Of a stretch of 64,000 nt of DNA, positions 32,626 through 47,604 are shown piece by piece. Source of the stretch: Escherichia phage ph0011; the sequence record OP557969.1, one strand, 5' to 3'. The translations under genes and the position numbers were made by a program. The notes under the pieces are model-generated. The model saw nothing but the letters and a program-made list of their open reading frames with translations. It made no database searches and was not told the origin of the DNA. Position 1 is the first letter of the stretch, and each line of letters starts with the position of its first letter.

Positions 32626-32632
32626 TGCAAAC

Positions 32633-32659
32633 AGCCCGACATAAGTTCGGGCTATTTTT
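32633..32659 (+). terminator. Rho-independent terminator
   Basis: agcccga-cataagt-tcgggct then atttttg. Confidence 0.75.
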
Positions 32660-32671
32660 GTAAGGAAAAAT

Positions 32672-32941
32672 ATGAATTACAAAAATATACAATTCACTTA
32701 TATGGAATTATTTAAATTACACCATAAAAACAGAAGTTCTAACACAATTATTAAAAATGCGTTTACCCATAAACTATGGACAAATTACCTAGAAGAATTG
32801 CGTGAATATTTTGTTGATACTGAAATTTTCATTGGTGGTAAAAAACGAAAAATACTTAGAGTCGATAGTTTTGGTGGTCGATTAGTTCTTTCATATAAAC
32901 TTAATAACGATCTATGTTCTGTGAATTTGGTAGATTTATGA
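32672..32941 (+). CDS. FamC (IQFTY) small protein
   Basis: MNYKNIQFTYMELFKL; ..LEELREYF..; C-terminal GGRLVLSY. Confidence 0.65.
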   Translation: MNYKNIQFTYMELFKLHHKNRSSNTIIKNAFTHKLWTNYLEELREYFVDTEIFIGGKKRKILRVDSFGGRLVLSYKLNNDLCSVNLVDL

Positions 32942-33198
32942 ATTATAAAGATTTCCAATTTACATTCAAATATATTCGTAGTATAGCAGATAAAAATAAT
33001 AGTGTGTTTTTAGAAGACACATGTTCTGAAATGATTAATACTGTTCGTGATAGGATTAAAGAAAAATTCAGTACTGTTATTATTAACGATGAACATGCAG
33101 AATTTTCAGATATAATAATTCGACGAGATGGTAAAGTTGAGGTTCAGTACTACACTGATTTTGGATTTACCAGTGTTACGTTGGAGATATTCCCTTGA
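32938..33198 (+). CDS. FamC (IQFTY) small protein
   Basis: ATGA overlap (track 32914..); MNYKDFQFTFKYIRS. Confidence 0.65.
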   Translation: MNYKDFQFTFKYIRSIADKNNSVFLEDTCSEMINTVRDRIKEKFSTVIINDEHAEFSDIIIRRDGKVEVQYYTDFGFTSVTLEIFP

Positions 33199-33506
33199 GA
33201 TTAAATTTAAATGATATTCAATTTACATATAAAAATATATACGATTTGTATGATATGTATCTTTTTAGTGGGAAGATTGGTAACCATACTGAATCAAAAG
33301 AATCACCATTTATCCAAAATTACTTTGATTACTTAGATGCAGTTGGTGAATATATAAAAAAGAATTACAGTACTTACACTGATGGAGATGATATGTTTGA
33401 ATATTCAGGTATAAAATCTTATCAAGGAATTATCCATGTTGAGTTTCTTGAAAAAACTGATAGGGAGTTTATAGAGATCAAAGTGATGAAGTTAACGGAC
33501 CTGTAA
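33195..33506 (+). CDS. FamC (IQFTY) small protein
   Basis: TTGA overlap, TTG start; LNDIQFTYKNIYDLY. Confidence 0.6.
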   Translation: MRLNLNDIQFTYKNIYDLYDMYLFSGKIGNHTESKESPFIQNYFDYLDAVGEYIKKNYSTYTDGDDMFEYSGIKSYQGIIHVEFLEKTDREFIEIKVMKLTDL

Positions 33507-33516
33507 GGATTGACAT

Positions 33517-33807
33517 ATGATTCTTAATGATATACAATTCACATATAGAGTTTTATACATGGAGTACTCTCATACTGATCCTAAAGACTATCACTATTAT
33601 GAAACCTTTCGAACGATATGGATTGAATTTTTAGATGAATTAAAAGCGTATTACGGTAGTGTTCGTATTGTTCGTGATGGTAGAATTTACACTTGTAAAG
33701 ATGTTGTCAGTCATAGTGGTAAGCTACGATTAGAATTATATACAGAAGGACATGGTTGGATTGGTGTAAATTTACTGGATTTAGATAATGAAACACAACT
33801 TAAATGA
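33517..33807 (+). CDS. FamC (IQFTY) small protein
   Basis: TAAGGA RBS; MILNDIQFTYRVLYMEY; SHSGKLRLEL. Confidence 0.65.
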   Translation: MILNDIQFTYRVLYMEYSHTDPKDYHYYETFRTIWIEFLDELKAYYGSVRIVRDGRIYTCKDVVSHSGKLRLELYTEGHGWIGVNLLDLDNETQLK

Positions 33808-34066
33808 CATACAAGTGTTCTATAGCTTCGTATATGAATCTTATGCATCAGAAGGTTACTATGAAAGTGTGTATTATTTTTTATGGCAACAATACCGTAC
33901 TATAGTACGAGATTTATATATAGGAAAATATATAACATACTGTGATAGTAGAATGATGTGCACAGATGTTCTTAGTTATCATGGTAGGTTGGTATTCCAG
34001 TTCGAAGACAGTGAAGGTAGTATGTCTTTAAATGTAAGAGATTTAAAAGGAGTGCATTTTGAATAA
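33788..34066 (+). CDS. FamC (IQFTY) small protein
   Basis: LNDIQVFYSFVYESY; SYHGRLVFQF. Confidence 0.65.
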   Translation: MKHNLNDIQVFYSFVYESYASEGYYESVYYFLWQQYRTIVRDLYIGKYITYCDSRMMCTDVLSYHGRLVFQFEDSEGSMSLNVRDLKGVHFE

Positions 34067-34259
34067 GTGTCCATATTGTAACAGTACTCAATTAGCTCGT
34101 TTCCGTTTAGATTCAGACTGGGCCACTGGTGCTGGTGATTTCTTTCCTATCAATGATGATGCAGAATATACAGAAGAACAGCACAAAGATTTTGATAAAT
34201 CATGGCGACCTGACATTGAGTGCATTTATTGTCTTAATTGTGAGCGTATACATGACTAA
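34059..34259 (+). CDS. zinc-ribbon protein
   Basis: TTG after AAGGAG; CPYCNS ... CIYCLNC. Confidence 0.5.
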   Translation: MNKCPYCNSTQLARFRLDSDWATGAGDFFPINDDAEYTEEQHKDFDKSWRPDIECIYCLNCERIHD

Positions 34260-34515
34260 AGCTGAACTGATCGTACAAACACTGCGTTTATTGAGGGATT
34301 TAGATATCCCACGCATGGATGTGAAACTTGAAGATATCTACATTGAATCTCTTAGTGAAGATTACACCGATACCGTAATGATGCTGAATGACGTGCTTTA
34401 TCGTATAGATAGCATCAGTCGTCTTGGAAGTACTTTAAAAGTGAATATGGAAAGAGTTGATAAACTTTATGTACATATATATAGTCTACCTATTTCAATA
34501 TTAAACTATAGATGA
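34252..34515 (+). CDS. small hypothetical protein, FamC/D-like
   Basis: Track ORF 34129.. trimmed to the ATG at the upstream stop; 87 aa. Confidence 0.5.
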   Translation: MTKAELIVQTLRLLRDLDIPRMDVKLEDIYIESLSEDYTDTVMMLNDVLYRIDSISRLGSTLKVNMERVDKLYVHIYSLPISILNYR

Positions 34516-34802
34516 ATATTATATTGATACAAAAAACATATGCGTTATTGATGAAAGAATATACTAATACTTATGATGAAAAGTGCAGTGCAAATCATAA
34601 TATGTATAAATTCATTACCCAAGAGTACAGGGATTATATATATGCTGCGTTAGTGGGTAGATATTTCAGTACTAAAAAACGTAAAGAACTCAAAGTTGTA
34701 GATATTACTTTTTTCTACAACGGGCATATAACAATTCATGGTGTTGAACATAATTCACAAATATATCGTAACTATTCATTCAATGAGGTAACAATTATAT
34801 GA
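34512..34802 (+). CDS. FamC (IQFTY) small protein, variant
   Basis: ATGA overlap; MNIILIQKTYALLMKEY. Confidence 0.6.
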   Translation: MNIILIQKTYALLMKEYTNTYDEKCSANHNMYKFITQEYRDYIYAALVGRYFSTKKRKELKVVDITFFYNGHITIHGVEHNSQIYRNYSFNEVTII

Positions 34803-34981
34803 GAGTAGTATTTTTTATCTGGAGTCTTTTCTCACTAGCAGTACTGACAGTTTCAGGTGCTTATTCTTTTTTAACAATGAACACATGGTATGTTAATTTA
34901 CTATTCCCAATTGTTGGTGTCGGTTTAGGATTTACTTTACATAGTGTATGTAAGGATTACAATGACAAATACAACAAATGA
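34799..34981 (+). CDS. small membrane protein (2 TM)
   Basis: ATGA overlap; two hydrophobic stretches FFIWSLFSLAVLTVSGAY / LLFPIVGVGLGFTL. Confidence 0.55.
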   Translation: MRVVFFIWSLFSLAVLTVSGAYSFLTMNTWYVNLLFPIVGVGLGFTLHSVCKDYNDKYNK

Positions 34982-35240
34982 AGTTCTTATTGCTGAAACA
35001 ATGAATATGATTTATTTTATTACTACGGCACAGGATTTGTCTTATCCAGTGAAATCGTTACTTAGGTCAATGTATATTGATATTGTAAAAGAATATTATA
35101 AATCTAAACACAGAAGTATTATTAGTGTTTATCGTGATTATGAAAGGATTCGTATTTTATTCTGGAACAAGAACCGAGTTCGTGAGGAATGTGATCTAGT
35201 AGATTTTAAATTAGAGAATCTTTATTGTTACAAAATTTAA
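34962..35240 (+). CDS. small hypothetical protein, FamC/D-like
   Basis: ATG after AAGGA (track 34944..); 92 aa. Confidence 0.5.
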   Translation: MTNTTNEVLIAETMNMIYFITTAQDLSYPVKSLLRSMYIDIVKEYYKSKHRSIISVYRDYERIRILFWNKNRVREECDLVDFKLENLYCYKI

Positions 35241-35296
35241 AAGATGATAAATATTTTACAAAAGAATGTTTTTTTAGAAAAAAAAGGATTTTGTAA

Positions 35297-36781
35297 ATGA
35301 AAGTATGTACGAATTTAAATGTTACTGGTGATATAACGTCTAATGGGATGACGTTAAGCAAGAATCATAATTATGAGAATTTTAGTGACCTACAAGAAAG
35401 ATGTACTAAAATGCTTTTACAATTTGATAAACCTGAAGTATACGATCCTGATATTACTATTACAATAACTACTAAAAATGTAAATTATACATATAAAGGA
35501 CCAATTGATGGTATGTGTGATATAGAAAATCCTTCATTGTATAAAATTTCCATGTATGTATACACTGACAAAGAGTATTTTATAAACGATGTACAATTAT
35601 CAGATGATGGTAGTTTTCATTTTTCTAAAACGAATAATGGCTCAAAACAATTTAGACTAATTAGAATATCTGATAATAAATGGATTGATACATTAGAATA
35701 TGCATTATTGACTAGAAGTTATATAATACCAGAAACTGAAGATTCGCAAGTTAGAAATACAATGAAAGATCGTTGTTACACATATGATCAAGCGGCAGTT
35801 GCTATTGCATTAATGGTACAAAACCACCCAGAGATGGATAGATATGTATATGGTTTGTGTCAATTGGTTGAGGAAAATGGTGGAATAAAATTTTTTGTTA
35901 ATAGGATATCGGCATTTTCCAATAGAGCATACTATAGAATGGGTAATGCTGCATGGGTATTATATGGATTAGCTTTTTACTTATGGAAATTCCCAGATGG
36001 GGTATATGCGAATTTGGCCCGTGAAAAACTTTTGTTAGGGTTAGAATGGGTATCAACTTTTAAAGTAACTACACCCGGTGATAAAAGAGAAGGTTTATAT
36101 ATGGGTGGAAAAGGAAAATTTATCAATAATGGTTCTCAATTTGACCCGAATTACATTGCTAGTTGGTGTGCAATGGAACACAATTTAGATCTTTGGTTTT
36201 TATTTGATCTATGCTCTGTTATTGGAATTCAGAATTATGATACAATAGCAAAGGAATTACATAATAATATAAATGATAAATTGTGGATAGAAAGTGAAGG
36301 ACGTTTTCGTCAAGGTGTACATGAAACAACAGATGATAATGCTGCTGCATTAGATCAATCATCATGGGGTGGTTTGTATTCTTTATATGCAGATGGTAAT
36401 GATACAAAAGCAGTAAAATGTCACAAATATATGGAACGTTTTATGTTTGGTACGTTGGAATGTGAGGGATATACGCCTTATAATAAATTATTTGGTTATC
36501 CAAATGCAGTACAAGGTGTATGGACTGAAGGAACTGCTGGTGTGGCTTTGTTTGAACGTGCATTGGGTAATGACAGAACTGCCGCAAAATTAATTGCTAA
36601 TTTGAAGCCTATATGTGACCCAGTTTATGGATATCGTGACTCATGTGATGACCCAGATTACGATGTTCTTCCAGATTGGCCTTCCTCGTGTAATACAGCA
36701 TGGATTATTCTGGCTATTAACCCACAAGGTTTCTGGAAAGTTGAAGCCCCACTGATGGATATTGGGCTTGTGAAATATTAA
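35297..36781 (+). CDS. 494-aa protein, possible (alpha/alpha)-barrel glycan-degrading enzyme with fibre-like N-terminus
   Basis: N-term LNVTGDITSNG; repeated W/aromatic helix pattern (AAWVLYGLAFYLW, SWCAMEHNLDLWFLF, DQSSWGG, VWTEGTAGVALF); pattern-level only. Confidence 0.35.
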   Translation: MKVCTNLNVTGDITSNGMTLSKNHNYENFSDLQERCTKMLLQFDKPEVYDPDITITITTKNVNYTYKGPIDGMCDIENPSLYKISMYVYTDKEYFINDVQLSDDGSFHFSKTNNGSKQFRLIRISDNKWIDTLEYALLTRSYIIPETEDSQVRNTMKDRCYTYDQAAVAIALMVQNHPEMDRYVYGLCQLVEENGGIKFFVNRISAFSNRAYYRMGNAAWVLYGLAFYLWKFPDGVYANLAREKLLLGLEWVSTFKVTTPGDKREGLYMGGKGKFINNGSQFDPNYIASWCAMEHNLDLWFLFDLCSVIGIQNYDTIAKELHNNINDKLWIESEGRFRQGVHETTDDNAAALDQSSWGGLYSLYADGNDTKAVKCHKYMERFMFGTLECEGYTPYNKLFGYPNAVQGVWTEGTAGVALFERALGNDRTAAKLIANLKPICDPVYGYRDSCDDPDYDVLPDWPSSCNTAWIILAINPQGFWKVEAPLMDIGLVKY

Positions 36782-36793
36782 TTATAATAAAAA

Positions 36794-36826
36794 ATGAACA
36801 TATAAAAATATATGTTCATTTTTTTA
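36794..36826 (+). terminator. Rho-independent terminator
   Basis: atgaacatata-aaaa-tatatgttcat (11 bp) then ttttttt. Confidence 0.75.
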
Positions 36827-36854
36827 TGGACATTATTAATATTTGTGATATAAT
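36826..36854 (+). promoter_or_regulatory. early-type sigma70 promoter (TGTGATATAAT class)
   Basis: ATGGAC - 17 nt (..atttgtga) - TATAAT. Confidence 0.65.
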
Positions 36855-36894
36855 ATTGGATAAGGAACAATAACTAACACAAGGAGTGTGGAAA

Positions 36895-37623
36895 GTGCTT
36901 GACCGTATCCGTTTTGCCACAGAGATGGCGAATGAATTAAACATGGCAAATTTTCAAATGTTAACATCAGTGATGGCTGAACATGCATGTGCTTATTCTG
37001 TAAGTGGTGTGCAGTGTGGTCAGGAGAATATGTTAGCAGATGTATATAGCGAAGTTCAAAGTAAACAATACAGTGTAAAGACGTACAAGGATAAGTTCGT
37101 TAGTCTTTATATGAATGAAGACATTTCAGAAGACCGCAAATATACTGATTTTATTATTGAACGAAGAGTATCAGGTGTATCTAATCCTAACGCACCAAGT
37201 GATGAAGTTTTTTCAGAAGTACTGAAAGATATATACGAAAATGAATTGAAAAGTAAGAATCATTACAATGTACGTGAAACTAACACTGTGCTCTTGGGAT
37301 ATGATGAAGACGATCAATATTATTATTTCCGTATGACAGAAGTCCCTTTTGAATACAAATCACCAAGTACTACTGCTGTAAAAGAATTTACCGAGAAAAG
37401 CAAGAACTACAAGAAACATGAAGGCAACCGTTGTAGTATAAATGGTTATAATGAAGATGGTGTTCATATATATGAATGGGTTCATCCTAATTGCCAGACA
37501 TATACCCGTTGCTTGAAGAAACGTTATAATTTAGAAGACAATGAATCCTTCTACTTTAAAGTTAAGAAACAAAGCTATACTCGCCCTGAAGATTCAGAAT
37601 TGATGGGTATGGTATATTTCTAA
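36895..37623 (+). CDS. hypothetical protein
   Basis: GTG 8 nt after AAGGAG (track start 36886 overlaps the RBS); 242 aa. Confidence 0.6.
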   Translation: MLDRIRFATEMANELNMANFQMLTSVMAEHACAYSVSGVQCGQENMLADVYSEVQSKQYSVKTYKDKFVSLYMNEDISEDRKYTDFIIERRVSGVSNPNAPSDEVFSEVLKDIYENELKSKNHYNVRETNTVLLGYDEDDQYYYFRMTEVPFEYKSPSTTAVKEFTEKSKNYKKHEGNRCSINGYNEDGVHIYEWVHPNCQTYTRCLKKRYNLEDNESFYFKVKKQSYTRPEDSELMGMVYF

Positions 37624-37632
37624 GGAACTGTT

Positions 37633-37914
37633 ATGGATTTTTACCTACACACATGGTCATACGAACAATACATTACATTATATCTTGAGATTATTAATAC
37701 TGATCCCAGATATGGTTGTGATTTTGCTGATATTATAAAAGAGTATGCAGATGAGTTTGAGTTTGTATATCTTGGCTCTGACCTATTCGTGAAGAGTGTA
37801 GGTAAAACCGGACGCATCACTGAGATTGATTATGATACTGTTAGTGTGAATTTCTATGTTGATTTTCCTTGTGATGGCGTTGATGGTGTATATTGTCTAT
37901 ATGAAATAATTTAA
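37633..37914 (+). CDS. small hypothetical protein, FamD-like
   Basis: TAAGGA RBS; ..EYADEFEFVYLGSDLFVKSVGKTGRITEIDYD. Confidence 0.55.
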   Translation: MDFYLHTWSYEQYITLYLEIINTDPRYGCDFADIIKEYADEFEFVYLGSDLFVKSVGKTGRITEIDYDTVSVNFYVDFPCDGVDGVYCLYEII

Positions 37915-37921
37915 ATTTTTA

Positions 37922-37945
37922 GGCCAGCGTTTGCTGGTCTTTTTT
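37922..37945 (+). terminator. Rho-independent terminator
   Basis: ggccagc-gttt-gctggtc then tttttt. Confidence 0.8.
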
Positions 37946-37958
37946 CGCAGGTACAAAG

Positions 37959-38258
37959 ATGATTAGTATAGATTTAATTAACAGTACTATAAAGTTGTTG
38001 GCTGATGTAGTGAGAGAATCCAATGGAACTGTATACCCATCAATGTATAAAATCTTTGAACGATACATCAAGGATTGTAACATATCCTTATATGGACTGG
38101 CGGTTGATATAGACGACCACTATGAAATTAATACTTCATATAAAACAGGAATGTTAATTGGTATTAATATGATGGGATATTTTCCTTATTACTGTATAGG
38201 ATTACCAGATAGTACTATGGTAGATTACCCAGCCAGTACTATTAAATTAAGAGGATAA
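37959..38258 (+). CDS. small hypothetical protein
   Basis: 99-aa ORF after the terminator. Confidence 0.5.
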   Translation: MISIDLINSTIKLLADVVRESNGTVYPSMYKIFERYIKDCNISLYGLAVDIDDHYEINTSYKTGMLIGINMMGYFPYYCIGLPDSTMVDYPASTIKLRG

Positions 38259-38265
38259 AACTAAA

Positions 38266-38844
38266 ATGAATGTATTAGAATTAAGTACTAAGCTTATTAG
38301 TATGCGTAATGAGTGGTACGATTGGTTTTATAAAGGCACTGATATGGATTTTTCAAAATATCCATTTATGGAATCAGGATGTGATGCAAACTACCGCTGG
38401 TTGAGCAAAAGTGATTCTGGTTTATTCATTCGAATTGATGATAGTGGTCAAGGAATTTTAAAAGATTTAATTCGAGTTGAAGAACTCGTCCATGACAATT
38501 GGTGTGATAATGATCCATACCTTGGAAATATGATTTATGTAAGTGAAAATGATTGCATATTCGTTATCCAGCGTCATGGTGATTCTATGTTTTATGTAGC
38601 AGACAACAGTACACCTGACGGTGCGGCAGCCAGTGAACTTATGCCTAAGATTGGTATATTGGAATTTGGATTACCTGAGCACTTTCAGATTAGTACTTTA
38701 TACGATATTCCACCACTTGAGTTCTTTGAAGAATTTAAATTATACTACAATGATCTTCAAAAATTGAGTTCTGAACATCGAATTGAAATAATAGTCAAGT
38801 ACATGGATGGGACAAAATTAACCGATACGGGGATAGAATTTTGA
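38266..38844 (+). CDS. FamA paralog (outlier copy)
   Basis: core LPEHFQISTLYDIPPLEFF. Confidence 0.7.
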   Translation: MNVLELSTKLISMRNEWYDWFYKGTDMDFSKYPFMESGCDANYRWLSKSDSGLFIRIDDSGQGILKDLIRVEELVHDNWCDNDPYLGNMIYVSENDCIFVIQRHGDSMFYVADNSTPDGAAASELMPKIGILEFGLPEHFQISTLYDIPPLEFFEEFKLYYNDLQKLSSEHRIEIIVKYMDGTKLTDTGIEF

Positions 38845-39530
38845 TTAAAGATTTAGATAGAATTTTATATGTACTAAGGGGTGTGATTACATTGCATCCA
38901 CAGATTAATCGCATGGAGCGTGTATTTGAATTAAAATCAATAGAAACTCCATATTCACATATATCAAATGTAGTTGGATCATTCAGTACTGAAGACTCTC
39001 CATATGATATTTGTGTATGTGAAGTACAACCAAGTTCGGATATTGGATTTGCTATTTTTGATAAAAATCGAAATCTTATTAGTATGTTTCAGTGCAATAA
39101 TCCTTTTTGGAAAACATGCCTGTATCCAGAGTGGGCTATGCTTGATCCAACAAAGAGTAACATTAAAGTGTACGACTCTAAAAACAAAGAAGTCGTTATT
39201 GATTTGGATGAGTCAATGACTGAGGAAGAACACTTTCAGTTAATGATGTTGCGAGCTATGCCTGAATACAATGCAATGATTAACACTGTGAAATATATTA
39301 ATGATACTATGCAATCATTGCGTACACATGAGTTTTGTCATCCAGTATTGTATGAAAATTTAGATTTAGACTTCAGTACTATTAAATTTAAAGATAATGT
39401 TGTAAATTACATTCAAGAGAATGTTAAATTTGATTTTATTAATACTATGAATAATAATCCAAAAACAAATTTCAGGCATCAGTATAATGAATCGCTCTCT
39501 AATGGACGCGATACCAGTTGGTGGAAATAA
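38841..39530 (+). CDS. FamA paralog (outlier copy)
   Basis: TTGA overlap, TTG start; core TEEEHFQLMMLRAMPE. Confidence 0.65.
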   Translation: MIKDLDRILYVLRGVITLHPQINRMERVFELKSIETPYSHISNVVGSFSTEDSPYDICVCEVQPSSDIGFAIFDKNRNLISMFQCNNPFWKTCLYPEWAMLDPTKSNIKVYDSKNKEVVIDLDESMTEEEHFQLMMLRAMPEYNAMINTVKYINDTMQSLRTHEFCHPVLYENLDLDFSTIKFKDNVVNYIQENVKFDFINTMNNNPKTNFRHQYNESLSNGRDTSWWK

Positions 39531-39531
39531 T

Positions 39532-39795
39532 ATGAATATCCAAGATAGATTACAATTGTTGTGCACACTTGAACAAGCTGCTTATGAACTTGTTAATAAA
39601 ATCTCTGAAGAACTTCCCAAAGGAACTAGAGTTCGTGTTCGTGAAATGGATTATGTAACGGGTGAAATTGAAGAAAAAGTTTTAACAGTGGTTAAAGTAA
39701 CATACTATGAGTCAGAGCTATCAATTCAATGTAAGTCAGATAATGGTTACATTTCCTACTATGGCACTGATATAGAGATGGAGGTAATCAAATGA
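39532..39795 (+). CDS. small hypothetical protein, FamD
   Basis: ATG just after upstream stop (track 39487..); LEQAAYELVNKISEELPKGTRVRVREMD. Confidence 0.55.
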   Translation: MNIQDRLQLLCTLEQAAYELVNKISEELPKGTRVRVREMDYVTGEIEEKVLTVVKVTYYESELSIQCKSDNGYISYYGTDIEMEVIK

Positions 39796-40934
39796 CCCTT
39801 TTACAAATATATGAAGATTTGATGCACTTATGTAATACCCGTGAGGCTTTCTTTTATGTAGATCATAAAAGTCCTGCTGGTGGCACATATCGTGTATTCA
39901 GTTATCGACTAGCATCATATACTGATTTCATGCAACCGAATGCATTGGAAACCCGTGGTTCTATGTGGGAAATCGATGACGATGGCAACATGATACGTTG
40001 TGCATCACGTTGTATGAAAAAGTTCTTTAATGCTTACGAAAATCCTGCTACGATGTTCCCTGCTGATACCAAATGTGATGACATTGCAGTAGTGATGCCT
40101 AAGTTGGATGGTTCAATTATCAGTTCTTACCGTGATAATGATGGTATTATTCGTTGTAAATCACATACCTCATTGTATTCTGACCATGCAATTAACAGTA
40201 CTCGACTAATTAACGAGAACCAGAATTTGTATCAGTACATTGATGAAGCTGAACGTTTGGGTTACACGGTTAACATGGAGTACACAAGCCCAGAGTACCG
40301 AATCGTATTGCCATATCAGGTAGAACAACTATTTGTTCTAAACGTCCGTCATCGTGTAAGTGGTGAATTGTTGTGTGGTAAAGCATTACGCGAAAAGTTT
40401 CCTTGTCTTTCACAGTACAGCACCAATATGACAGGTAAAGATATTCATCACACGTTTCCGGTAAGAAATACATTTCGTGAAAGTGTTGAAGAAGTTCATA
40501 AAATGCTTGATATTGAGGGTTTTGTTTGTATTCTAAAAGATGGGACAATGTGTAAAATAAAGACGGATTGGTATAGTTCATTACATCTAACAAAAGACAG
40601 TATCATTATTGATTCACATTTGTTCGAAGCTGTGTTAAATGGTTCAAGTGACGACTTGAAACAATTATTCAGTACTGACGAATATGCTATGCAAAAGATA
40701 TTGAGAATGGAACAATTGGTATTTTCGTGCTATAATTCATTACAAGATGAGGTAGAAAACTTCGTCAATACACACAAGCACTTGGGACGAAAGGAATTCG
40801 CAATGAAGGTTCAGGAGTGTTTGACTAATGAACTAAATCGTCAGGGCTTGGCCTTTGCAATGTATAACAATAAGTATGTTGATTATAAAGAAACTCTTAT
40901 CAAATACATGAAAGTAGTACTAAAGGACTTTTAG
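39792..40934 (+). CDS. rnlA: RNA ligase 1 (T4 gp63/RnlA-like)
   Basis: 380 aa; N-term ..FFYVDHKSPAGGTYRVFSYRLASYTDF..ALETRG and KLDGS adenylation lysine collinear with T4 Rnl1 as I recall it. Confidence 0.85.
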   Translation: MTLLQIYEDLMHLCNTREAFFYVDHKSPAGGTYRVFSYRLASYTDFMQPNALETRGSMWEIDDDGNMIRCASRCMKKFFNAYENPATMFPADTKCDDIAVVMPKLDGSIISSYRDNDGIIRCKSHTSLYSDHAINSTRLINENQNLYQYIDEAERLGYTVNMEYTSPEYRIVLPYQVEQLFVLNVRHRVSGELLCGKALREKFPCLSQYSTNMTGKDIHHTFPVRNTFRESVEEVHKMLDIEGFVCILKDGTMCKIKTDWYSSLHLTKDSIIIDSHLFEAVLNGSSDDLKQLFSTDEYAMQKILRMEQLVFSCYNSLQDEVENFVNTHKHLGRKEFAMKVQECLTNELNRQGLAFAMYNNKYVDYKETLIKYMKVVLKDF

Positions 40935-40966
40935 TATAATCTATAGCCTAAGCACAAGGAGAAGTG

Positions 40967-41221
40967 ATGGCTAAACCTAAGTATAGAAATGACGGTTCCC
41001 TTTCTCCAACAGAGTTCAGGAAGATACAAGAAGAAATCGATACATTACAGCACAAACGCTCTAAGAAAGGTGTGAAGATTAGTAAGAAACGAATCGAGAA
41101 TACTTTCGGTTGTAGTAGTACTGAATATAAAAAGAAAAGGAAACCGAAAGATGTTAGACCGAGAATATATGATATTACTCGTTATACATCAAGACGTGAA
41201 AATAAGTTTGATCCACTATAA
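40967..41221 (+). CDS. basic (Lys/Arg-rich) hypothetical protein
   Basis: ATG after AAGGAG (track 40964..); 84 aa. Confidence 0.55.
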   Translation: MAKPKYRNDGSLSPTEFRKIQEEIDTLQHKRSKKGVKISKKRIENTFGCSSTEYKKKRKPKDVRPRIYDITRYTSRRENKFDPL

Positions 41222-41230
41222 GGAGTTCAT

Positions 41231-41461
41231 ATGAAAGTTGAAGTTCAGCATAGTATTGTTCAAGATATGTCGGTAGTGAAATTTCATTCTCTGAAAGATT
41301 ACTTCAGGTGTATCAAGTTTCTAGAAGAATCTCATTTACAGTGGACTCCATTGAAATACAGTTCATTTAATGATACAGCTAGTATTCGTTGTGATGAATC
41401 TGTACTTGTAAAAATTACAAAACGATTTGGGTTAGGTAAAATTAATGAGCACAGTAAATGA
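41231..41461 (+). CDS. small hypothetical protein
   Basis: TAAGGAG RBS; 76 aa. Confidence 0.6.
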   Translation: MKVEVQHSIVQDMSVVKFHSLKDYFRCIKFLEESHLQWTPLKYSSFNDTASIRCDESVLVKITKRFGLGKINEHSK

Positions 41462-41699
41462 CCTAAAATACTACAACCAAACTGCGGATACCTTTATTAC
41501 CCATTTATATGAAGAATTCAGTCGTATCCGCAATGAATATACTGGTAAATGTATTTTATATAGCTTTTATCATAGTGGTGAAATTGAACTTGCTTACATT
41601 ACTAAAGTGAAGTTTTCAGATGACTATCAATTACTCTTTGAATTAGACAATAGTTTCGTTATTGAAGCTAATTTGATAGTTGATGTACTAGATAAGTGA
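41445..41699 (+). CDS. small hypothetical protein, FamD
   Basis: ..THLYEEFSRIRNEYTGKCILYSFYH.. Confidence 0.55.
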   Translation: MSTVNDLKYYNQTADTFITHLYEEFSRIRNEYTGKCILYSFYHSGEIELAYITKVKFSDDYQLLFELDNSFVIEANLIVDVLDK

Positions 41700-41705
41700 G
41701 GACAC

Positions 41706-42020
41706 ATGAATAAAGAACTTGCTCAAAAAGGCATTGATCAGTTAAAGTACATTGAAAAGGAACTAATAGAATCAGTTGAATTAATGGTCGAAGATTTCGT
41801 GTTTGATTTTAAGAAAACATTGATTGGATGTAAAGTCAAATGCTGGGACCATACTATCAGGGAATGGTTTAGTACTATAATCCTTGATGTTAAAGTATCG
41901 CGTACTGCTTTTGGTAACTTAGTAAATGGTGAATGCTTTGTATACACTGAATACAATAACGGAACAAGACACCTTTCAAAAGGATGGCACAGACTCGAAG
42001 ATGTAGAATTCATTGAGTAG
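41706..42020 (+). CDS. small hypothetical protein, FamD
   Basis: GTGAGG RBS; ..LKYIEKELIES..KKTLIGCKVKCWDH. Confidence 0.6.
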   Translation: MNKELAQKGIDQLKYIEKELIESVELMVEDFVFDFKKTLIGCKVKCWDHTIREWFSTIILDVKVSRTAFGNLVNGECFVYTEYNNGTRHLSKGWHRLEDVEFIE

Positions 42021-42032
42021 TAAGGAGTAATA

Positions 42033-42965
42033 ATGCCGACTATCACACTAACAGTTGGTTTACCTGGATGTGGTAAAACAACATGGGCAGTACAAGAGAT
42101 TAAAAAAGCCAAATCCAAGACTATCAATATCAACCGTGATGATATTCGTGAATCGATGGCTGGGTCACATGATGCTTACAAATTCAATGATGCTAATGAG
42201 AAGTACGTAACTAATTTACAGTTCAGTGCAGCAAAATTAGCAGCAGAGAATGGTTGGAATATTATTGTATCCGACACAAACCTTAAACCACATTTCCGTG
42301 AACAATGGAAAATGTGGGCTAAAGATAATGGTTATGATTATAAAGAAAAGAACTTCTATGATGATTTTGTACCAAAGGAAGACCGTGGTGCAGATGTTCA
42401 TGAATTCTTTAAGATTAAAGAGTTTGTAAAACTTTGTAAGAAATATAACCTCCAGCGTGAGCGTTCAGTACAAGATAATATCATTGACACAATGGCAGAT
42501 ACGTACTATTATAGTAAGGCATTGCATATTGGTTACTATGGTAATTCTCGTGAAGAAGCGATTATCGTTGATATCGATGGAACTCTTGCTCATAAATGGA
42601 ACCGCAATCCATTTGATGAAAGTACAGTTCTCCAAGATACACCAGACGAAGAAGTTATTTTGTCTGTTATCGCCGAAGCAGTTTTTCATAAACGCAAGAT
42701 TATTGTCATGAGTGGTCGTACTGAAGGGTGTCGTGCTGACACAGAACAGTGGTTGAAGAATTGGGGTGTTCCCTACGATGCATTGTTTATGCGAGGCATT
42801 GATGATAAACGTCCCGATGATGTTGTTAAATTCGACCTGTACATGAAAAATGTGGTTGATCATTACGATGTTAAAAAAGTATATGATGACAGAGCACAAG
42901 TCGTATTCATGTGGCGTAAACTACTTGGATTGAAAGTGATGCAAGTTGCGGAAGGAAATTTTTAG
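42033..42965 (+). CDS. pseT: polynucleotide 5'-kinase / 3'-phosphatase (T4 PseT-like)
   Basis: GLPGCGKTT P-loop; DIDGTLA HAD motif; C-terminal ..MWRKLLGLKVMQVAEGNF like the T4 Pnkp end. Confidence 0.85.
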   Translation: MPTITLTVGLPGCGKTTWAVQEIKKAKSKTININRDDIRESMAGSHDAYKFNDANEKYVTNLQFSAAKLAAENGWNIIVSDTNLKPHFREQWKMWAKDNGYDYKEKNFYDDFVPKEDRGADVHEFFKIKEFVKLCKKYNLQRERSVQDNIIDTMADTYYYSKALHIGYYGNSREEAIIVDIDGTLAHKWNRNPFDESTVLQDTPDEEVILSVIAEAVFHKRKIIVMSGRTEGCRADTEQWLKNWGVPYDALFMRGIDDKRPDDVVKFDLYMKNVVDHYDVKKVYDDRAQVVFMWRKLLGLKVMQVAEGNF

Positions 42966-42972
42966 TACAAAA

Positions 42973-42997
42973 AGGGATCAGTATATGATCCCTTTTT
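42973..42997 (+). terminator. Rho-independent terminator
   Basis: agggatc-agtatat-gatccct then ttttt. Confidence 0.75.
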
Positions 42998-43015
42998 CTT
43001 TTAAGGTACATTATA

Positions 43016-43192
43016 GTGAATGTAACAACACAAATGTTATTACGAAAAGATTATTTAGAAAATATAGAAAGATTCTATAGAATGTCTTTGTATGAAAATA
43101 AGCATAAAAATTATAATTTTGATAAACTGCTAAATTCCAGTACTGATGATTATTTATTTTCATCAATGTTTTATGTGAGAGGATTATTGTAA
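43016..43192 (+). CDS. small hypothetical protein (58 aa)
   Basis: Hand-translated GTG ORF (or ATG 43034); TAATG overlap with 43192. Confidence 0.35.
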   Translation: MNVTTQMLLRKDYLENIERFYRMSLYENKHKNYNFDKLLNSSTDDYLFSSMFYVRGLL

Positions 43193-43452
43193 TGGATAAA
43201 TTTCATACAGATATAACACAGATAGGTAACCTTATCAATAGTCTAATTACTGATTTAGAAGAAAAGTACTTAGGGCGAAATGTATACGTAGAAATGTATG
43301 AAACATATGGTGTTATTGATATGATTTATTATAGTGCATTGAAATATGAAATACGTTTAACTGTATGTTTATATGAAAAAGGTACATTTAAAAGAAGTTC
43401 TGCAATCCGTCAAGTCGGAGTTGACGACATTGAATTATACGAGGAACAATGA
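43192..43452 (+). CDS. small hypothetical protein, FamD
   Basis: ..IGNLINSLITDLEEKYLGRNVYVEMYE.. Confidence 0.6.
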   Translation: MDKFHTDITQIGNLINSLITDLEEKYLGRNVYVEMYETYGVIDMIYYSALKYEIRLTVCLYEKGTFKRSSAIRQVGVDDIELYEEQ

Positions 43453-43703
43453 TGTTTGAGCAGGACTTAGAGCTATTCAAAAGTTATATTGAGTACTTAG
43501 TTACTTTAGAAAAAGAGCTAACTGCAAAGTACAAGGGTGTTCGTGTTCAGTGCTGGTATGACGATTGTGATTATAAACGTGAACTTATTATTGACCGAAT
43601 ATATTTCATCGATGGTGTATTGAATGTACATGGTGTTAATGATTTTGGACATTCATATACTTATTCAAATAATGCAAAATTCAAGAGGATTGACAATGAA
43701 TGA
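43449..43703 (+). CDS. small hypothetical protein, FamD
   Basis: ATGA overlap; ..YIEYLVTLEKELTAKYKGVRVQCWYDD.. Confidence 0.6.
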   Translation: MMFEQDLELFKSYIEYLVTLEKELTAKYKGVRVQCWYDDCDYKRELIIDRIYFIDGVLNVHGVNDFGHSYTYSNNAKFKRIDNE

Positions 43704-43998
43704 GTATTATCAAAATTTATTCAAATACATAAAACTAATAGATGATCTTGCTTTTGATTTTCTTAGTACTGATAAAGTTGATGAGCCTTTATATTATGAT
43801 TGTATTGGTTCACTTTGTTCATATGAAAAAGAAATATTAGAAAACAATTTACCATCAACGCTCTGTATTATCAATGGTTCTAAAGCGGTGGTGGTAGATG
43901 TTAATTTTTATAAATCACTTAATACAATTGTTTACAAGTTTGATAACACTGGGTTTAATCATATAACAGGTAATATTAAATCTGTGAGGTTCTTATGA
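43696..43998 (+). CDS. small hypothetical protein, FamD-like
   Basis: ATG after AGAGGA (track 43624..); MNEYYQNLFKYIKLIDDLAFDF. Confidence 0.55.
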   Translation: MNEYYQNLFKYIKLIDDLAFDFLSTDKVDEPLYYDCIGSLCSYEKEILENNLPSTLCIINGSKAVVVDVNFYKSLNTIVYKFDNTGFNHITGNIKSVRFL

Positions 43999-44291
43999 AT
44001 TTAAAACATTTGTTAGAACAGGCTCATTTATTGTATAGCTGTGCTGATGGTTCTGGTAAGGAGTATAGTGAAGTTTATTTAGAACTGTTTAGAACGGAAA
44101 TACACATAATTAGAAGATACTTAATTGATAATAAAACTGAAGTAAAAGTTAGATACCATAATGGTACTTTAAAGAATGGTATAATTATTGGATTGATAGT
44201 TTCACGAATGTCTAGTAATATTAAAGTTGCAATTAGATTAATGACTGATGATGGTGTCTACACCATAGAAGTAAGTGAGATTATATATTAA
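43995..44291 (+). CDS. small hypothetical protein, FamD-like
   Basis: ATGA overlap; 98 aa. Confidence 0.55.
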   Translation: MNLKHLLEQAHLLYSCADGSGKEYSEVYLELFRTEIHIIRRYLIDNKTEVKVRYHNGTLKNGIIIGLIVSRMSSNIKVAIRLMTDDGVYTIEVSEIIY

Positions 44292-44597
44292 ATGGATATA
44301 CAAACATTCAATAAACTTAAGTACTACGACAATGGTTTTACTATTATTATTAATGAACTGGATGGGATACCATATGAGTATCATAATGGTGTAATGAAAA
44401 TATTAAAAAGTATTTGTGATGATTTAAAAACTATATTTGAAAATGAATATGTTTACGACTTAGGCATAAACAATAAAAAATTATACATAAAGAAATTCAG
44501 TGGGACGCATTGTGGGCTGATGGTTAATTTGGGTTTATGTGCTGACAATAATTTTGAAGCATGTAGTTTATATCTGGATGAAATGCGAATCTCATGA
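44292..44597 (+). CDS. small hypothetical protein, FamD-like
   Basis: 101-aa ORF directly after upstream stop. Confidence 0.55.
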   Translation: MDIQTFNKLKYYDNGFTIIINELDGIPYEYHNGVMKILKSICDDLKTIFENEYVYDLGINNKKLYIKKFSGTHCGLMVNLGLCADNNFEACSLYLDEMRIS

Positions 44598-44623
44598 GAC
44601 ATATCTTGAATCGGTGATATAAT
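44595..44623 (+). promoter_or_regulatory. early-type sigma70 promoter (GATATAAT class)
   Basis: TGAGAC - 17 nt (..tcggtga) - TATAAT. Confidence 0.6.
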
Positions 44624-44655
44624 TTCATTACAACACTGACAATGGAGTAGATGTT

Positions 44656-44985
44656 GTGGATGACGATTTTTTTAAAACGTTGGATAAAACGATAGTTATT
44701 CTATCTAGTTCATTAATGCACATTTTCAGTACTGATAATTCTTATAGTTCACATACATTTGATTTAATATGTAATAACTATGTAAATGGTATATCAGATG
44801 ATTTATGTCCATTTATTGCATATTTACTCGATGATAGTGAAGAATTTAATATATGCAACATTAGTTGTGGATTTGGTGATTGGATTGTGTTAAATGAACG
44901 TGGTGGGATCTGTTTATACACCGAAGATATTGGTAAATTTATATATAAAGGAGTAGAATATGTTAACAATCGCAGCAGTTATTAG
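44656..44985 (+). CDS. hypothetical protein
   Basis: GTG 8 nt after GGAG; 109 aa. Confidence 0.55.
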   Translation: MDDDFFKTLDKTIVILSSSLMHIFSTDNSYSSHTFDLICNNYVNGISDDLCPFIAYLLDDSEEFNICNISCGFGDWIVLNERGGICLYTEDIGKFIYKGVEYVNNRSSY

Positions 44986-45550
44986 TGTACTAGGCGTAGC
45001 CATTACAGGTATGCTTGCTTACAATTACAACCGTAGTGTTATCGGTTATGTACTACTTAGTCTAGTACTAACACCAGTACTAGCCATCGTTACTTTATTA
45101 GTATTAGGTGAACGTAAAATCAACTTCATTATTAATGATAAACGTGATCAAGTTACACCCGAACCCGAAAAAGTTATCAATGAAGAACGAGAAGAGCAAA
45201 AAGTTGAAGTTCAAATGAAAGTGAATGTTCACAACGCACTTGATGAAACTGACCCTAAAGTTAATATTACTGTTGTTCCTAAAGTCAATGAAGTAAAGCC
45301 TAAAACAGCAACAAAAAGTTCTAAATCAAAGAAAAGCACCAAGACCACAAAGAAAGCTCGCAACACAAAAGGTAAGAATAAAAACAAAGTTCAAGATGAA
45401 CCACAACAAGACACACATGATCATACTTCCCATATTATTACAGCAGCTACAACCGCAGCAGTTGTGACACCATATATCTCTTCTGCTGATACTGGTTCAT
45501 ATGATAGCTCTAGCTGTGATTCAAACACTAGTTCTGGAAGCGGTGATTAA
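44960..45550 (+). CDS. membrane protein with Lys-rich and Ser-rich tail
   Basis: AAAGGAG RBS; two N-terminal TM segments; KSSKSKKSTKTTKKARNTKGKNKNK. Confidence 0.65.
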   Translation: MLTIAAVISVLGVAITGMLAYNYNRSVIGYVLLSLVLTPVLAIVTLLVLGERKINFIINDKRDQVTPEPEKVINEEREEQKVEVQMKVNVHNALDETDPKVNITVVPKVNEVKPKTATKSSKSKKSTKTTKKARNTKGKNKNKVQDEPQQDTHDHTSHIITAATTAAVVTPYISSADTGSYDSSSCDSNTSSGSGD

Positions 45551-45552
45551 CA

Positions 45553-45885
45553 ATGAAACATCTTGTACAATATAATCAGTACTTGATTTCATTACACAAA
45601 ATGAAAGATGATTTCTTTAGAAGTGCTGAGATTGAACTCGTTGGTAAGATAGTAAAATTTACTGACGAGTATATCAAAAGATACACTGACATAGATGATG
45701 ACCCAGAGTATGAATCATACTACCAGTACATAAATCAATATACTAGAATGCGAATTGTTGGAATTTTAAAATTCGGTATACGATTAGTTGCACATGTGGA
45801 ATTCATCAATTACGAAGCAATTGATGCAGCAGCCTTTGGGGATGAAATTAGTTTAGATCATCTTATACTAGTTGATGAGGAATAA
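45553..45885 (+). CDS. small hypothetical protein, FamD
   Basis: ..YLISLHKMKDDFFRSAEIELVGKIVKFTDE.. Confidence 0.6.
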   Translation: MKHLVQYNQYLISLHKMKDDFFRSAEIELVGKIVKFTDEYIKRYTDIDDDPEYESYYQYINQYTRMRIVGILKFGIRLVAHVEFINYEAIDAAAFGDEISLDHLILVDEE

Positions 45886-45887
45886 TA

Positions 45888-46103
45888 ATGATTACATTTT
45901 TTGCAATATATGGGTTTGTTGCGTTTTGTTCATTTATATGTAACTTTCTAGTACTAAATTGGAATTGTTTCAAAGATGAAATCATAACTGCAATGAGTCT
46001 GCAATCAGCAGCACTAATGGCTATAATTTGGCCTGTAACTATGGTGTATCTTTTTATCTCAATAATAAAAGATATCACATCCCACTTCAAGAGAAAGAAA
46101 TAA
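45888..46103 (+). CDS. small membrane protein (2 TM)
   Basis: 71 aa, hydrophobic FFAIYGFVAFCSFICNFLVL / AALMAIIWPVTMVYLFISII. Confidence 0.55.
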   Translation: MITFFAIYGFVAFCSFICNFLVLNWNCFKDEIITAMSLQSAALMAIIWPVTMVYLFISIIKDITSHFKRKK

Positions 46104-46354
46104 TGTTTAACACAGACTATTCACATTTACGATATCTTATGTCTTTGGCTGATGATTTTATTAATGATTTGAAGCCTAAGTATATTGGACAGGAAGTAAG
46201 TTTGATAAACTCTAGGGGTTATGGAAAGTACATTATTACTGATATGTATATTAGCGGTGGAGAATGGCGTTTCAAAGTTAATACGTATCTTAAAGATGGT
46301 TCTTTTGCAGGTACACAAGTTACAAAACACACTAACATTATATGGTTGAAATAA
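46103..46354 (+). CDS. small hypothetical protein, FamD
   Basis: TAATG overlap (track 46028..); ..LRYLMSLADDFINDLKPKYIGQEVSLIN.. Confidence 0.6.
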   Translation: MFNTDYSHLRYLMSLADDFINDLKPKYIGQEVSLINSRGYGKYIITDMYISGGEWRFKVNTYLKDGSFAGTQVTKHTNIIWLK

Positions 46355-46356
46355 TA

Positions 46357-47100
46357 ATGAAACATTTCTTAGAAGTTACAGTACCGGATGATAAAGATTT
46401 ATATATTGTTGGTGATTTACATGGTAATGGAAAACTGTGGGACGCGACTAAGAAAGAGTTCGGTGTCACCAACGAAGATTACGTGTTTTCTGTTGGTGAT
46501 GTTATTGACCGTGGTGACCAGAACTCTAAGCTTCTATTTGAATTCCTTTTCGGTGAAAACCGTTTTATGATTACTGGGAACCACGAGATGATGTGTGTTG
46601 ATTCTGAAACTCATCGTGACTGGTATCACTGTTGGGTCCAAAATGGTGGAGATAAGTTCATTGATGAAGTTGGGGTAACAGGCATTCAATTCTTTCGTCA
46701 GTACTTAAATGATCTCCCTATGATTATCCAAATCAATCACCGAGGATTGAAGATTGGGTTAGTTCATGCAGGTGTTCCATTGGAATATACAACATGGGAA
46801 CGTTTCGTTAATGGGACAAAATCACTTAGTGCTGATATAATTGAGAAGTGCTTGTGGGAACGTGATACATTTGACTACTGCAAGAAAAATAACACATATT
46901 ACGCCCCTAGACTTGATGGTATCCATTGCGTATTTAGTGGTCATACCGCAGTATCTGACCCACTCATTTATGGTAATCGTATTTGGATTGATAGTCAGTT
47001 TTTAACAGGTGATTTGACTCTTGCAACTCCACAAAGCGGTGGGATGAGATACTTACGTAAAGAAAAAGATGAGTACTCATTCAATCGTTTCAAAAGGTAA
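46357..47100 (+). CDS. Ser/Thr protein phosphatase-type metallophosphatase (lambda PP / PrpA-like)
   Basis: GDLHGN, GDVIDRGD, GNHE motifs; start moved to the ATG after the upstream stop. Confidence 0.8.
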   Translation: MKHFLEVTVPDDKDLYIVGDLHGNGKLWDATKKEFGVTNEDYVFSVGDVIDRGDQNSKLLFEFLFGENRFMITGNHEMMCVDSETHRDWYHCWVQNGGDKFIDEVGVTGIQFFRQYLNDLPMIIQINHRGLKIGLVHAGVPLEYTTWERFVNGTKSLSADIIEKCLWERDTFDYCKKNNTYYAPRLDGIHCVFSGHTAVSDPLIYGNRIWIDSQFLTGDLTLATPQSGGMRYLRKEKDEYSFNRFKR

Positions 47101-47105
47101 TAATT

Positions 47106-47366
47106 ATGCATGACGTAATTAAAAAATACTTAAATGATAGATATGTCCTGACAAAATCTATTAATTCTATACTAAAAGACCATGCTAATCAAATACATGA
47201 GATTCTATCCGAGAAACTTATTGGTTGTTCAGTTGAATTTGACTACAAAAAGAATATCGGAGTTATTCGACGTGTAGTTGATGTTTATGAACAAAATGTA
47301 TATGTTGAAATTGTATATGATGGTAAATTATTACAACTAAGTACTGAAGATTTGACATTTTTATAA
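47106..47366 (+). CDS. small hypothetical protein, FamD
   Basis: ..SINSILKDHANQIHEILSEKLIGCSVEFDYKK.. Confidence 0.6.
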   Translation: MHDVIKKYLNDRYVLTKSINSILKDHANQIHEILSEKLIGCSVEFDYKKNIGVIRRVVDVYEQNVYVEIVYDGKLLQLSTEDLTFL

Positions 47367-47376
47367 GGAAATAGAA

Positions 47377-47604
47377 ATGAAAGTAATTCAAGTTATGGTA
47401 GAAAAATACCAAACTGAAGATGGTCGCATTTTTGATTCAGCAAAACAAGCTGAACATCATGAACGTATTATTTCTGGTACACGTAAAGTGTGTCCTACAT
47501 GTAATGGAACACAACAAGTACCGTCAGAGGATTACCGCAGCTTTTATGCTTGTCCACAGTGTGACGGTAAAGGTTACGTAGAAAAACAAGAGGTATGGAA
47601 ATGA
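47377..47604 (+). CDS. DnaJ-type zinc-finger small protein
   Basis: TAAGGAAA RBS; CPTCNGTQ ... CPQCDGKG (CxxCxGxG x2). Confidence 0.6.
   Translation: MKVIQVMVEKYQTEDGRIFDSAKQAEHHERIISGTRKVCPTCNGTQQVPSEDYRSFYACPQCDGKGYVEKQEVWK

Follow-up and report, generated by a model that had tools for sequence, protein, structure and literature searches.

Expansions of paralogous genes have been described in jumbo phages: an array with over 30 genes in tandem in 121Q and phage G (Hua et al. 2017, PMC5646251), some 35 copies of a zinc ribbon in phage G (PMC7824862), 22 paralogous open reading frames (ORFs) in CBB (PMC5259590) and a share of about 10% paralogues in RaK2 (PMC3622015). Here we describe two groups of small genes, FamC and FamD, between positions 32672 and 47366 of a 64,000-nucleotide stretch of Escherichia phage ph0011 (record OP557969.1); this whole stretch is called the window. 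A sequence-only reading had proposed that the two groups are expanded families belonging to one superfamily. That observation is largely right, with moderate support for the superfamily, and the analysis establishes the family, its expansion, its selection regime, its distribution and its predicted fold class. Like the arrays named above, FamC and FamD are a tandem-duplication expansion in a giant genome, restricted to a phage lineage and devoid of database annotation. Unlike them, FamC and FamD are much more diverged (BLASTP misses most pairs), are dispersed in five runs around the RNA ligase (rnlA), polynucleotide kinase/phosphatase (pseT) and phosphatase genes instead of forming a single array, are older, being shared with the Alcyoneusvirus RaK2, and have a different fold.

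CarD, Mfd and PcrA/UvrD contact the beta subunit of RNA polymerase through Tudor-like domains. To these RNA polymerase-interacting domains (CarD N-terminal domain, 4l5g; PcrA/UvrD C-terminal domain, 5dma and 7egs) the phage family has no sequence-profile relationship. In contrast to them, the phage proteins stand alone (85 to 110 amino acids), have a barrel preceded by one or two packed N-terminal helices and exist as about 18 paralogues; RNA polymerase binding by the phage proteins is hypothetical. Other phage accessory proteins are also built on SH3/Tudor/KOW-like barrels, such as the N-terminal domain of T4-type MotB, to which Foldseek matches were weak, and Nip of phage Phi3T, a proven counter-defence protein with SH3-like domains (PMC11984713). 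Nip has 279 amino acids, with two SH3-like domains and an HU-like dimeriser, and shows no sequence homology to FamC or FamD; the likeness to Nip and MotB is one of fold class only. Two PHROGs, phrog_21004 and phrog_32291, cover part of FamC only and have no function assigned, and the papers searched contained no description of this helix-plus-barrel family. FamC and FamD are an undescribed family of a known type, that is, a jumbo-phage paralogous accessory expansion on a very common fold.

Membership of FamC and FamD

All ORFs that had been assigned to FamC and FamD are present at the positions given for them, on the plus strand, and the internal starts at 32938, 39532, 43696 and 46103 match coding sequences annotated in phage 121Q. 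Plain all-versus-all BLASTP linked only C1, C4 and C5 (named below) and was too insensitive. The syntenic region was therefore taken from seven relatives (121Q, A4, Turkey5, JNE01, SD-15_S21, TH47 and SP27), one-to-one orthologue alignments were made for every window gene, and the 71 genes of at most 135 amino acids were compared all-versus-all by hhalign. FamC core pairs reached 68 to 99% and the FamD core (41706, 43192, 43449, 46103 and 47106) reached 58 to 85%, whereas unrelated pairs mostly stayed below 10% and the top pair outside both families, two membrane ORFs, gave 29%. Profile-profile similarity within each group, on which the sequence-only reading had made its grouping depend, was thus found for both.

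Membership was then tested by iterative hmmbuild/hmmsearch with 627 ORFs (window plus loci L001 to L007; the poor-quality CMSTMSU locus, L008, was excluded) and a reversed and a shuffled copy of every protein as decoys. The FamD-core seed converged on 18 window genes (C1 to C5, 34512, 37633, 37959, 39532, 41445, 41706, 43192, 43449, 43696, 43995, 45553, 46103 and 47106), and the FamC-seeded iteration additionally recruited 34252-34515 and 43696. No decoy was recruited, nor any window gene that had not been proposed before. When one orthologue group at a time was left out, most groups were recovered with hhalign values of 47 to 95% and hidden Markov model (HMM) expectation values (E) of 1e-10 to 1e-4; recovery was weak for 37633, 41445, 43696 and 37959. 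In a two-step version of this test, RaK2 relatives were recruited by a profile built without the tested group and then added to that profile, which gave 92% for C6, 83% for 45553 and 14% for 37959. With the RaK2-augmented profile, 12 negative-control genes reached at most 1.4%, and 120 unrelated window genes all stayed at or below 4.2% against the family profiles.

FamC had been described as eight adjacent ORFs between 32672 and 35240. That stretch contains ten ORFs, of which seven (C1 to C7, 32672-34802) are members, one (C8) is doubtful and two are unrelated and interrupt the block:

C1, 32672..32941, plus strand: FamC, 89 amino acids; hhalign 99.1% to C4; phrog_32291 at E 5.5e-28; NIQFTY present
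C2, 32938..33198, plus strand: FamC, 86 amino acids; leave-one-group-out hhalign 95.3%, HMM E 1.3e-10
C3, 33195..33506, plus strand: FamC, 103 amino acids, TTG start; leave-one-group-out 94%, E 2.7e-8; an identical protein exists in public data (P0013)
C4, 33517..33807, plus strand: FamC, 96 amino acids; protein modelled
C5, 33788..34066, plus strand: FamC, 92 amino acids; hhalign 98.2% to C4
C6, 34252..34515, plus strand: divergent FamC, 87 amino acids, without the IQFTY opening; real start at about 34252; two-step leave-one-out hhalign 91.7%, HMM E 1e-8; pairwise hhalign 64% to C1
C7, 34512..34802, plus strand: FamC, 96 amino acids; FamC seed profile E 1e-4; leave-one-out 73%, E 1e-7
C8, 35001..35240, plus strand: doubtful member, 79 amino acids; 40.5% (80 columns) against the profile of FamC alone, 1.4% against the superfamily profile augmented with RaK2; not picked up in any HMM iteration

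The interrupting ORFs, a 66-amino-acid CxxC...CxxC zinc ribbon (34059-34259) and a two-helix membrane protein of 60 amino acids (34799-34981), are unrelated to the family and are kept in relatives. In Salmonella phage SD-15_S21 (L005 17463-17960) the orthologues of C6 and C7 are a single fused ORF, by which the two groups were artificially joined in single-linkage clustering. The proposed IQFTY opening and glycine-containing end were borne out by a 20-sequence alignment, in which conservation is at least 90% at Q7, T9 and Y10 of the I-Q-F-T-Y opening and complete at G68 of the S-x-x-G-K/R-L turn.

About 13 ORFs had been assigned to FamD. Eleven are supported and 37959 is weak:

37633..37914, plus strand: FamD, 93 amino acids; recruited at E 5.8e-4; leave-one-out 10.6% without RaK2; 90.4%, E 1e-6, in the two-step test with RaK2 relatives
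37959..38258, plus strand: weak candidate, 99 amino acids; recruited in the last iteration only, E 3.8e-4; leave-one-out hhalign 1.4%, two-step 13.7%; HMM E 1.8e-4 to 6e-3
39532..39795, plus strand: FamD, 87 amino acids, immediately upstream of RNA ligase; recruited at E 7.4e-8; leave-one-out 64.7%, two-step 39%; RaK2 ORF463, at the same position, is the best RaK2 match
41445..41699, plus strand: FamD, 84 amino acids; recruited at E 2.3e-5; leave-one-out 14.9%, two-step 84%
41706..42020, plus strand: FamD core, 104 amino acids; leave-one-out 89%, E 1.4e-7; G-x-x-V present
43192..43452, plus strand: FamD core, 86 amino acids; hhalign 85% to 43449 and 73% to 46103; leave-one-out 90%
43449..43703, plus strand: FamD core, 84 amino acids; assigned by pairwise hhalign, leave-one-out test and motif alignment
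43696..43998, plus strand: divergent member, 100 amino acids, without the motif glycine; recruited from both seeds (E 5.4e-8 and 2.1e-12); leave-one-out 9.2%, two-step 70.8%
43995..44291, plus strand: FamD, 98 amino acids; leave-one-out 46.9%, E 9.6e-5; two-step 81%
45553..45885, plus strand: FamD, 110 amino acids; recruited at E 4.3e-5; leave-one-out 66.6%, two-step 82.6%
46103..46354, plus strand: FamD core, 83 amino acids, protein modelled; leave-one-out 92.8%
47106..47366, plus strand: FamD core, 86 amino acids, just after the Ser/Thr phosphatase gene; leave-one-out 61.7%, E 1.3e-5; motif present

ORF 44292-44597 was rejected as a FamD member, with 0.9 to 1.9% to the family profiles. The (K/E)-(Y/L)-x-G-x-x-V motif proposed for FamD is real: in an alignment of 50 sequences (seven orthologue groups), conservation of G29 and V32 reaches at least 90%, and both map exactly to the helix-to-strand-1 junction of the AlphaFold2 model.

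Predicted fold and database matches

An AlphaFold2 model of C4 (predicted local distance difference test [pLDDT] score of 88) has helices at residues 3-19 and 25-46, followed by five strands. The model of 46103 (pLDDT 73) has a helix at 2-27 and strands at 31-36, 39-51, 54-62, 68-73 and 79-82. The two models come from separate alignments and agree in the order of helices, then five strands; in both, five antiparallel strands over about 50 to 60 residues are predicted to form a small SH3/Tudor-like beta-barrel. The layout that had been read from the sequence, a helix followed by an SH3-like tail in proteins of about 85 to 110 amino acids, is thus also what AlphaFold2 predicts for the two modelled members. 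Moreover, both models match the same BFVD entries: RaK2 H6X4J9, A0A7L8G4Y4 and the 78-amino-acid 121Q protein A0A097EY12, which is probably gp426, the orthologue of C5.

With the FamD model, Foldseek gave weak matches to MotB-type, KOW- and TUDOR-annotated phage proteins; the MotB and "transcriptional regulator" entries scored E 0.07 to 0.11 with template modelling scores of 0.44 to 0.47. Pfam contained no significant family for any of the 21 candidates, the RaK2 relatives or the metagenomic relatives. KOW was matched weakly by one protein only (E 0.081), a Phage_Gene33 match (E 0.0067, one of the 21 proteins) was not adopted for lack of support, and CarD_TRCF_RID was not matched by any of the 21 proteins at E <=0.1. 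Sm/Hfq proteins, which have strongly bent strands, Sm1/Sm2 sequence motifs and ring oligomers, also run helix, then five strands; there was no match to Pfam LSM/Hfq at E <=0.1, and this reading was not adopted either. Nothing significant was found in the PDB by sequence search: CarD, Mfd and PcrA were absent at E <=10, and the best values (E 0.019 to 0.03) belonged to unrelated proteins.

The genes are labelled "hypothetical protein" in every relative. Among the FamC proteins of the window, phrog_21004 is matched by four and phrog_32291 by two (best E 1.9e-36 and 5.5e-28, respectively), and P0057, a metagenomic relative, hits the two PHROGs alike; each FamD member belongs to a singleton-like PHROG of its own. 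The candidates showed no similarity to structural PHROGs. Of the 21 candidates, 16 are acidic (isoelectric point 4.1 to 5.8), a property that speaks against generic coating of nucleic acid. Reading the candidate sequences by eye, not with a predictor, revealed neither a signal peptide nor a membrane segment.

Probable common origin of FamC and FamD

The decoy-controlled HMM iteration merged the two groups and nothing else joined them. When sequences were pooled strictly by genomic position, the FamC block against everything downstream, hhalign gave 80% and E 1.3e-5 over 91 columns that span helix and barrel, and reversed or column-shuffled controls of this comparison stayed at or below 0.2%. 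Furthermore, RaK2 ORF456 and ORF478, which had not been used in training, match the C-only pooled profile as well as the D-only one. FamC resembles FamD plus one more N-terminal helix.

Several results weigh against a single superfamily. The core FamC and core FamD seed profiles gave only 0.7% with hhalign, the link within the 121Q clade alone reached 12%, and the pooled value fell to 48% without three FamC-like genes in the downstream region of Turkey5, JNE01 and A4. The two core profiles also select disjoint sets of RaK2 genes, and the FamD model is only moderately confident. FamC and FamD might then be unrelated and share no more than a simple helix-then-small-barrel design and the amino-acid composition of the phage, with the iterative search having bridged them by drift; the separation in PHROGs, whose remote-homology clustering groups FamC members only and leaves FamD in separate singleton families, would fit this as well. 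Against this reading, recruitment never extended to a reversed or shuffled decoy or to any of about 120 unrelated window genes, the alignment of the pooled profiles covers both helix and barrel, the two RaK2 proteins are matched from either side, and the two independent models share BFVD matches. We consider an unrelated origin rather unlikely. Since the core profiles fail to detect each other, common ancestry rests on intermediate sequences and predicted structures, and on that basis FamC and FamD are probably two recognisable subfamilies of common origin. The proposed superfamily has moderate support from the pooled groups and the predicted structures; the core profiles taken alone do not reveal it, and the 121Q clade alone shows it only weakly.

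Distribution and evolution

Positions 32000 to 48000 share 86 to 91% nucleotide identity with 35 Escherichia and Salmonella jumbo-phage records of the genus Asteriusvirus (121Q, PBECO4, phAPEC6 and others). A tblastn search of the concatenated members against 50,697 phage records returned 35 Asteriusvirus records only, and the proteins found by word-indexed searches were all of Asteriusvirus type and lay on contigs of about 350 kb. An exhaustive HMMER search of 1.84 billion representatives gave 30 hits, almost only proteins of 82 to 104 amino acids, of which those traced lay on contigs of up to about 350 kb or matched Asteriusvirus records, except for two small metagenomic proteins (P0060 and P0062). 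A WD40 protein of 1212 amino acids among the 30 was a repeat-driven false positive.

The strict restriction to Asteriusvirus suggested by tblastn was overturned by a search of RaK2 with the Asteriusvirus-trained HMM. Because the fold search had matched this Klebsiella phage, its region around pseT was examined, and about 8 to 12 members were found there (8 ORFs with E <1e-3 and 11 with E <0.005; best decoy 0.07). RaK2 keeps the gene order dam, cytidyltransferase, small ORFs, 729-nucleotide gene, small ORFs, rnlA, small ORFs, pseT, small ORFs, phosphatase, and this region already contains FamC-like genes interleaved with FamD-like ones. The syntenic region of GAP32 contains no significant family member by HMM. 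The presence of family members in the syntenic RaK2 region means, as far as sequence comparison tells, that the expansion is older than the split between Asteriusvirus and Alcyoneusvirus. "Lineage-specific", as the families had been called, is thus only partly right, given the RaK2 members and single copies in metagenomic phages. Such single-copy proteins of 62 to 82 amino acids ("EFIGKSV...VDYNG.IHIN"; E 2e-4 to 7e-4 against 1.84 billion sequences) are P0060 and one at L011 10001-10189, the latter on a metagenomic 121-kb contig of an unrelated phage, among small early-type genes adjoining DnaB, primase and DNA polymerase A. Both may be remote relatives of the barrel domain that stand alone.

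Each phage has 14 to 19 copies in the syntenic region. The median ratio of nonsynonymous to synonymous substitution rates (dN/dS, omega) is about 0.23 for family genes versus about 0.12 for their neighbours, and all omega values are below 1 (about 0.1 to 0.6). Amino-acid identity is likewise lower in the family than in neighbours, 0.80 versus 0.90 to 121Q and 0.42 versus 0.77 to A4. With omega below 1 throughout, the family genes are, by this sequence measure, functional and under relaxed or diversifying constraint. In the comparison with 121Q (L001), dS within the FamC block (32672-34802) is very uneven, from 0.35 to about 2.0, with flanks at about 0.2 to 0.6. This unevenness suggests allelic replacement, in which parts of the block were exchanged by recombination with a more distant phage.

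Genomic surroundings

The window is coded almost wholly on the plus strand, and its G+C content in 2-kb windows is 28 to 39%, mostly 30 to 35%. The following features accompany the family genes:

32633..32653, plus strand: terminator-like hairpin from a consensus scan, 7-bp stem with 5 GC pairs, then a T-run; between a gene for a 218-amino-acid protein and C1, just upstream of the FamC block
37921..37940, plus strand: terminator-like hairpin, 8-bp stem with 5 GC pairs, then TTTTTT; between 37633 and 37959
39792-40934: RNA ligase 1 (rnlA)
42033-42965: polynucleotide kinase/phosphatase (pseT)
46342-47100: Ser/Thr phosphatase
47595-48014, plus strand: PTH2-type peptidyl-tRNA hydrolase

Directly after the FamC block lies a plus-strand ORF of 494 amino acids (35297-36781) without a Pfam domain. 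Neither the seven compared Asteriusvirus loci nor any other record of the genus contains an orthologue. The ORF is most similar to a "tail protein" encoded by the Stx2k prophage phiSTEC1575 (56% identity, 95% coverage); minor tail proteins of Microbacterium phages come next, at about 28%. This ORF looks like a recent horizontal insertion. The plus-strand ORF 44960-45550 encodes 196 amino acids with an N-terminal membrane segment, a lysine/threonine-rich stretch and a serine/aspartate-rich low-complexity tail; it evolves fast (about 56 to 62% identity with relatives of the 121Q type), and Pfam gave no match. A plus-strand gene (47377-47604) for a 75-amino-acid protein whose CXXCXGXG zinc finger is of the Anti-TRAP/DnaJ type (Pfam E 2.4e-7, slightly under the cutoff) overlaps the start of the peptidyl-tRNA hydrolase gene.

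Upstream, at about 1300 to 25600 on the plus strand, are two further expanded families: at least 15 genes for proteins of 150 to 190 amino acids (2498...21625, hhalign at least 50%) and 8 or 9 genes for proteins of about 120 amino acids (6520...15465). Neither relates to the FamC/FamD profile. The family of 150 to 190 amino acids is most probably the array of ">30 very similar genes" reported for 121Q (PMC5646251). The sequence-only reading had put more than half of roughly 135 genes into four families, which overstates their share: at the thresholds used, the four families comprise about 45 to 50 of about 125 to 135 ORFs.

Possible functions

On balance, we favour the view that the region contains about 18 paralogues from a single family of small cytoplasmic proteins, which is old and diverges fast. 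A FamD protein would consist of one N-terminal helix, an aromatic-x-G-x-x-V/I junction and a five-stranded SH3/Tudor-like beta-barrel, and a FamC protein of two N-terminal helices, the extra one bearing the IQFTY motif, before the same junction and barrel. The genes would have arisen by repeated tandem duplication in an ancestor of RaK2/121Q-type jumbo phages; they now form tightly packed same-strand runs in an accessory region together with RNA ligase 1, polynucleotide kinase/phosphatase and the Ser/Thr phosphatase. The conserved residues would constitute the scaffold, while the surfaces would have diverged almost completely. The result would be a panel of small intracellular binders in which the barrel-plus-helix scaffold of each paralogue engages a different host or phage macromolecule, and binding would serve host takeover or counter-defence. 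This binder/takeover role is offered tentatively. It fits the position beside the RnlA/PseT RNA-repair module; in T4, RnlA and PseT repair tRNA that a host anticodon nuclease has cleaved (Amitsur et al. 1987, as cited in PMC7247149). A role as small phage inhibitors is a plausible hypothesis. Against the binder/takeover role it has to be said that the family proteins match no known anti-defence family, that the faster evolution and copy-number change fit an arms race and equally fit weak constraint on dispensable genes, and that sigma-70-like promoter sites were not enriched in the scan (102 found versus 105 expected), which leaves the scan without evidence on timing. A more far-reaching version, in which the 14 to 19 paralogues are a modular counter-defence/host-takeover arsenal kept from a time before RaK2 and 121Q split, with every copy acting as an inhibitor or adaptor dedicated to its own host factor and some docking on RNA polymerase like the Tudor domains of CarD and PcrA, is doubtful.

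The main functional rival is binding to RNA polymerase or RNA. The Tudor/KOW/Sm-like barrel would then bind host RNA polymerase or RNA, and the paralogues would tune different stages in the expression of genes. The weak matches of the FamD model to T4-type MotB, "transcriptional regulator" entries and a KOW protein point in this direction, as does the order of a helix and five strands, which is also that of Sm/Hfq. Against it, no match to the CarD_TRCF_RID, KOW, LSM or Hfq families of Pfam rose above noise and the PDB gave no sequence match; moreover, most candidates are acidic, and 18 copies are hard to explain for one target. We regard regulators as unlikely. That the genes encode virion or assembly proteins, or are decaying functionless duplicates, is highly improbable. 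Tandem structural-gene arrays do occur in jumbo phages of this group (PMC7247149, PMC5646251), but the family genes lie among nucleotide- and RNA-metabolism genes outside the structural module and have no similarity to structural PHROGs, their dN/dS values indicate purifying selection, and the ORFs are intact and syntenic as far as RaK2.

Most jumbo-phage genes are unannotated, and here about 18 "hypothetical proteins" per genome, spread over about 20 PHROGs, collapse to one fold family. One fold family with a defined scaffold motif simplifies the annotation of Asteriusvirus and Alcyoneusvirus genomes, themselves phage-therapy candidates, and provides a concrete set of small proteins for host-takeover or anti-defence screens. 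The modular arsenal, if true, would be co-located with the RnlA/PseT tRNA-repair counter-defence module; it would be the counterpart in phages of poxvirus and asfarvirus multigene families and would offer a wealth of new defence inhibitors. If the paralogues have different targets, they would show how one tiny scaffold diversified in the phage arms race; if their targets do not differ, the family would add another example of giant phage genomes inflated by tandem duplication.

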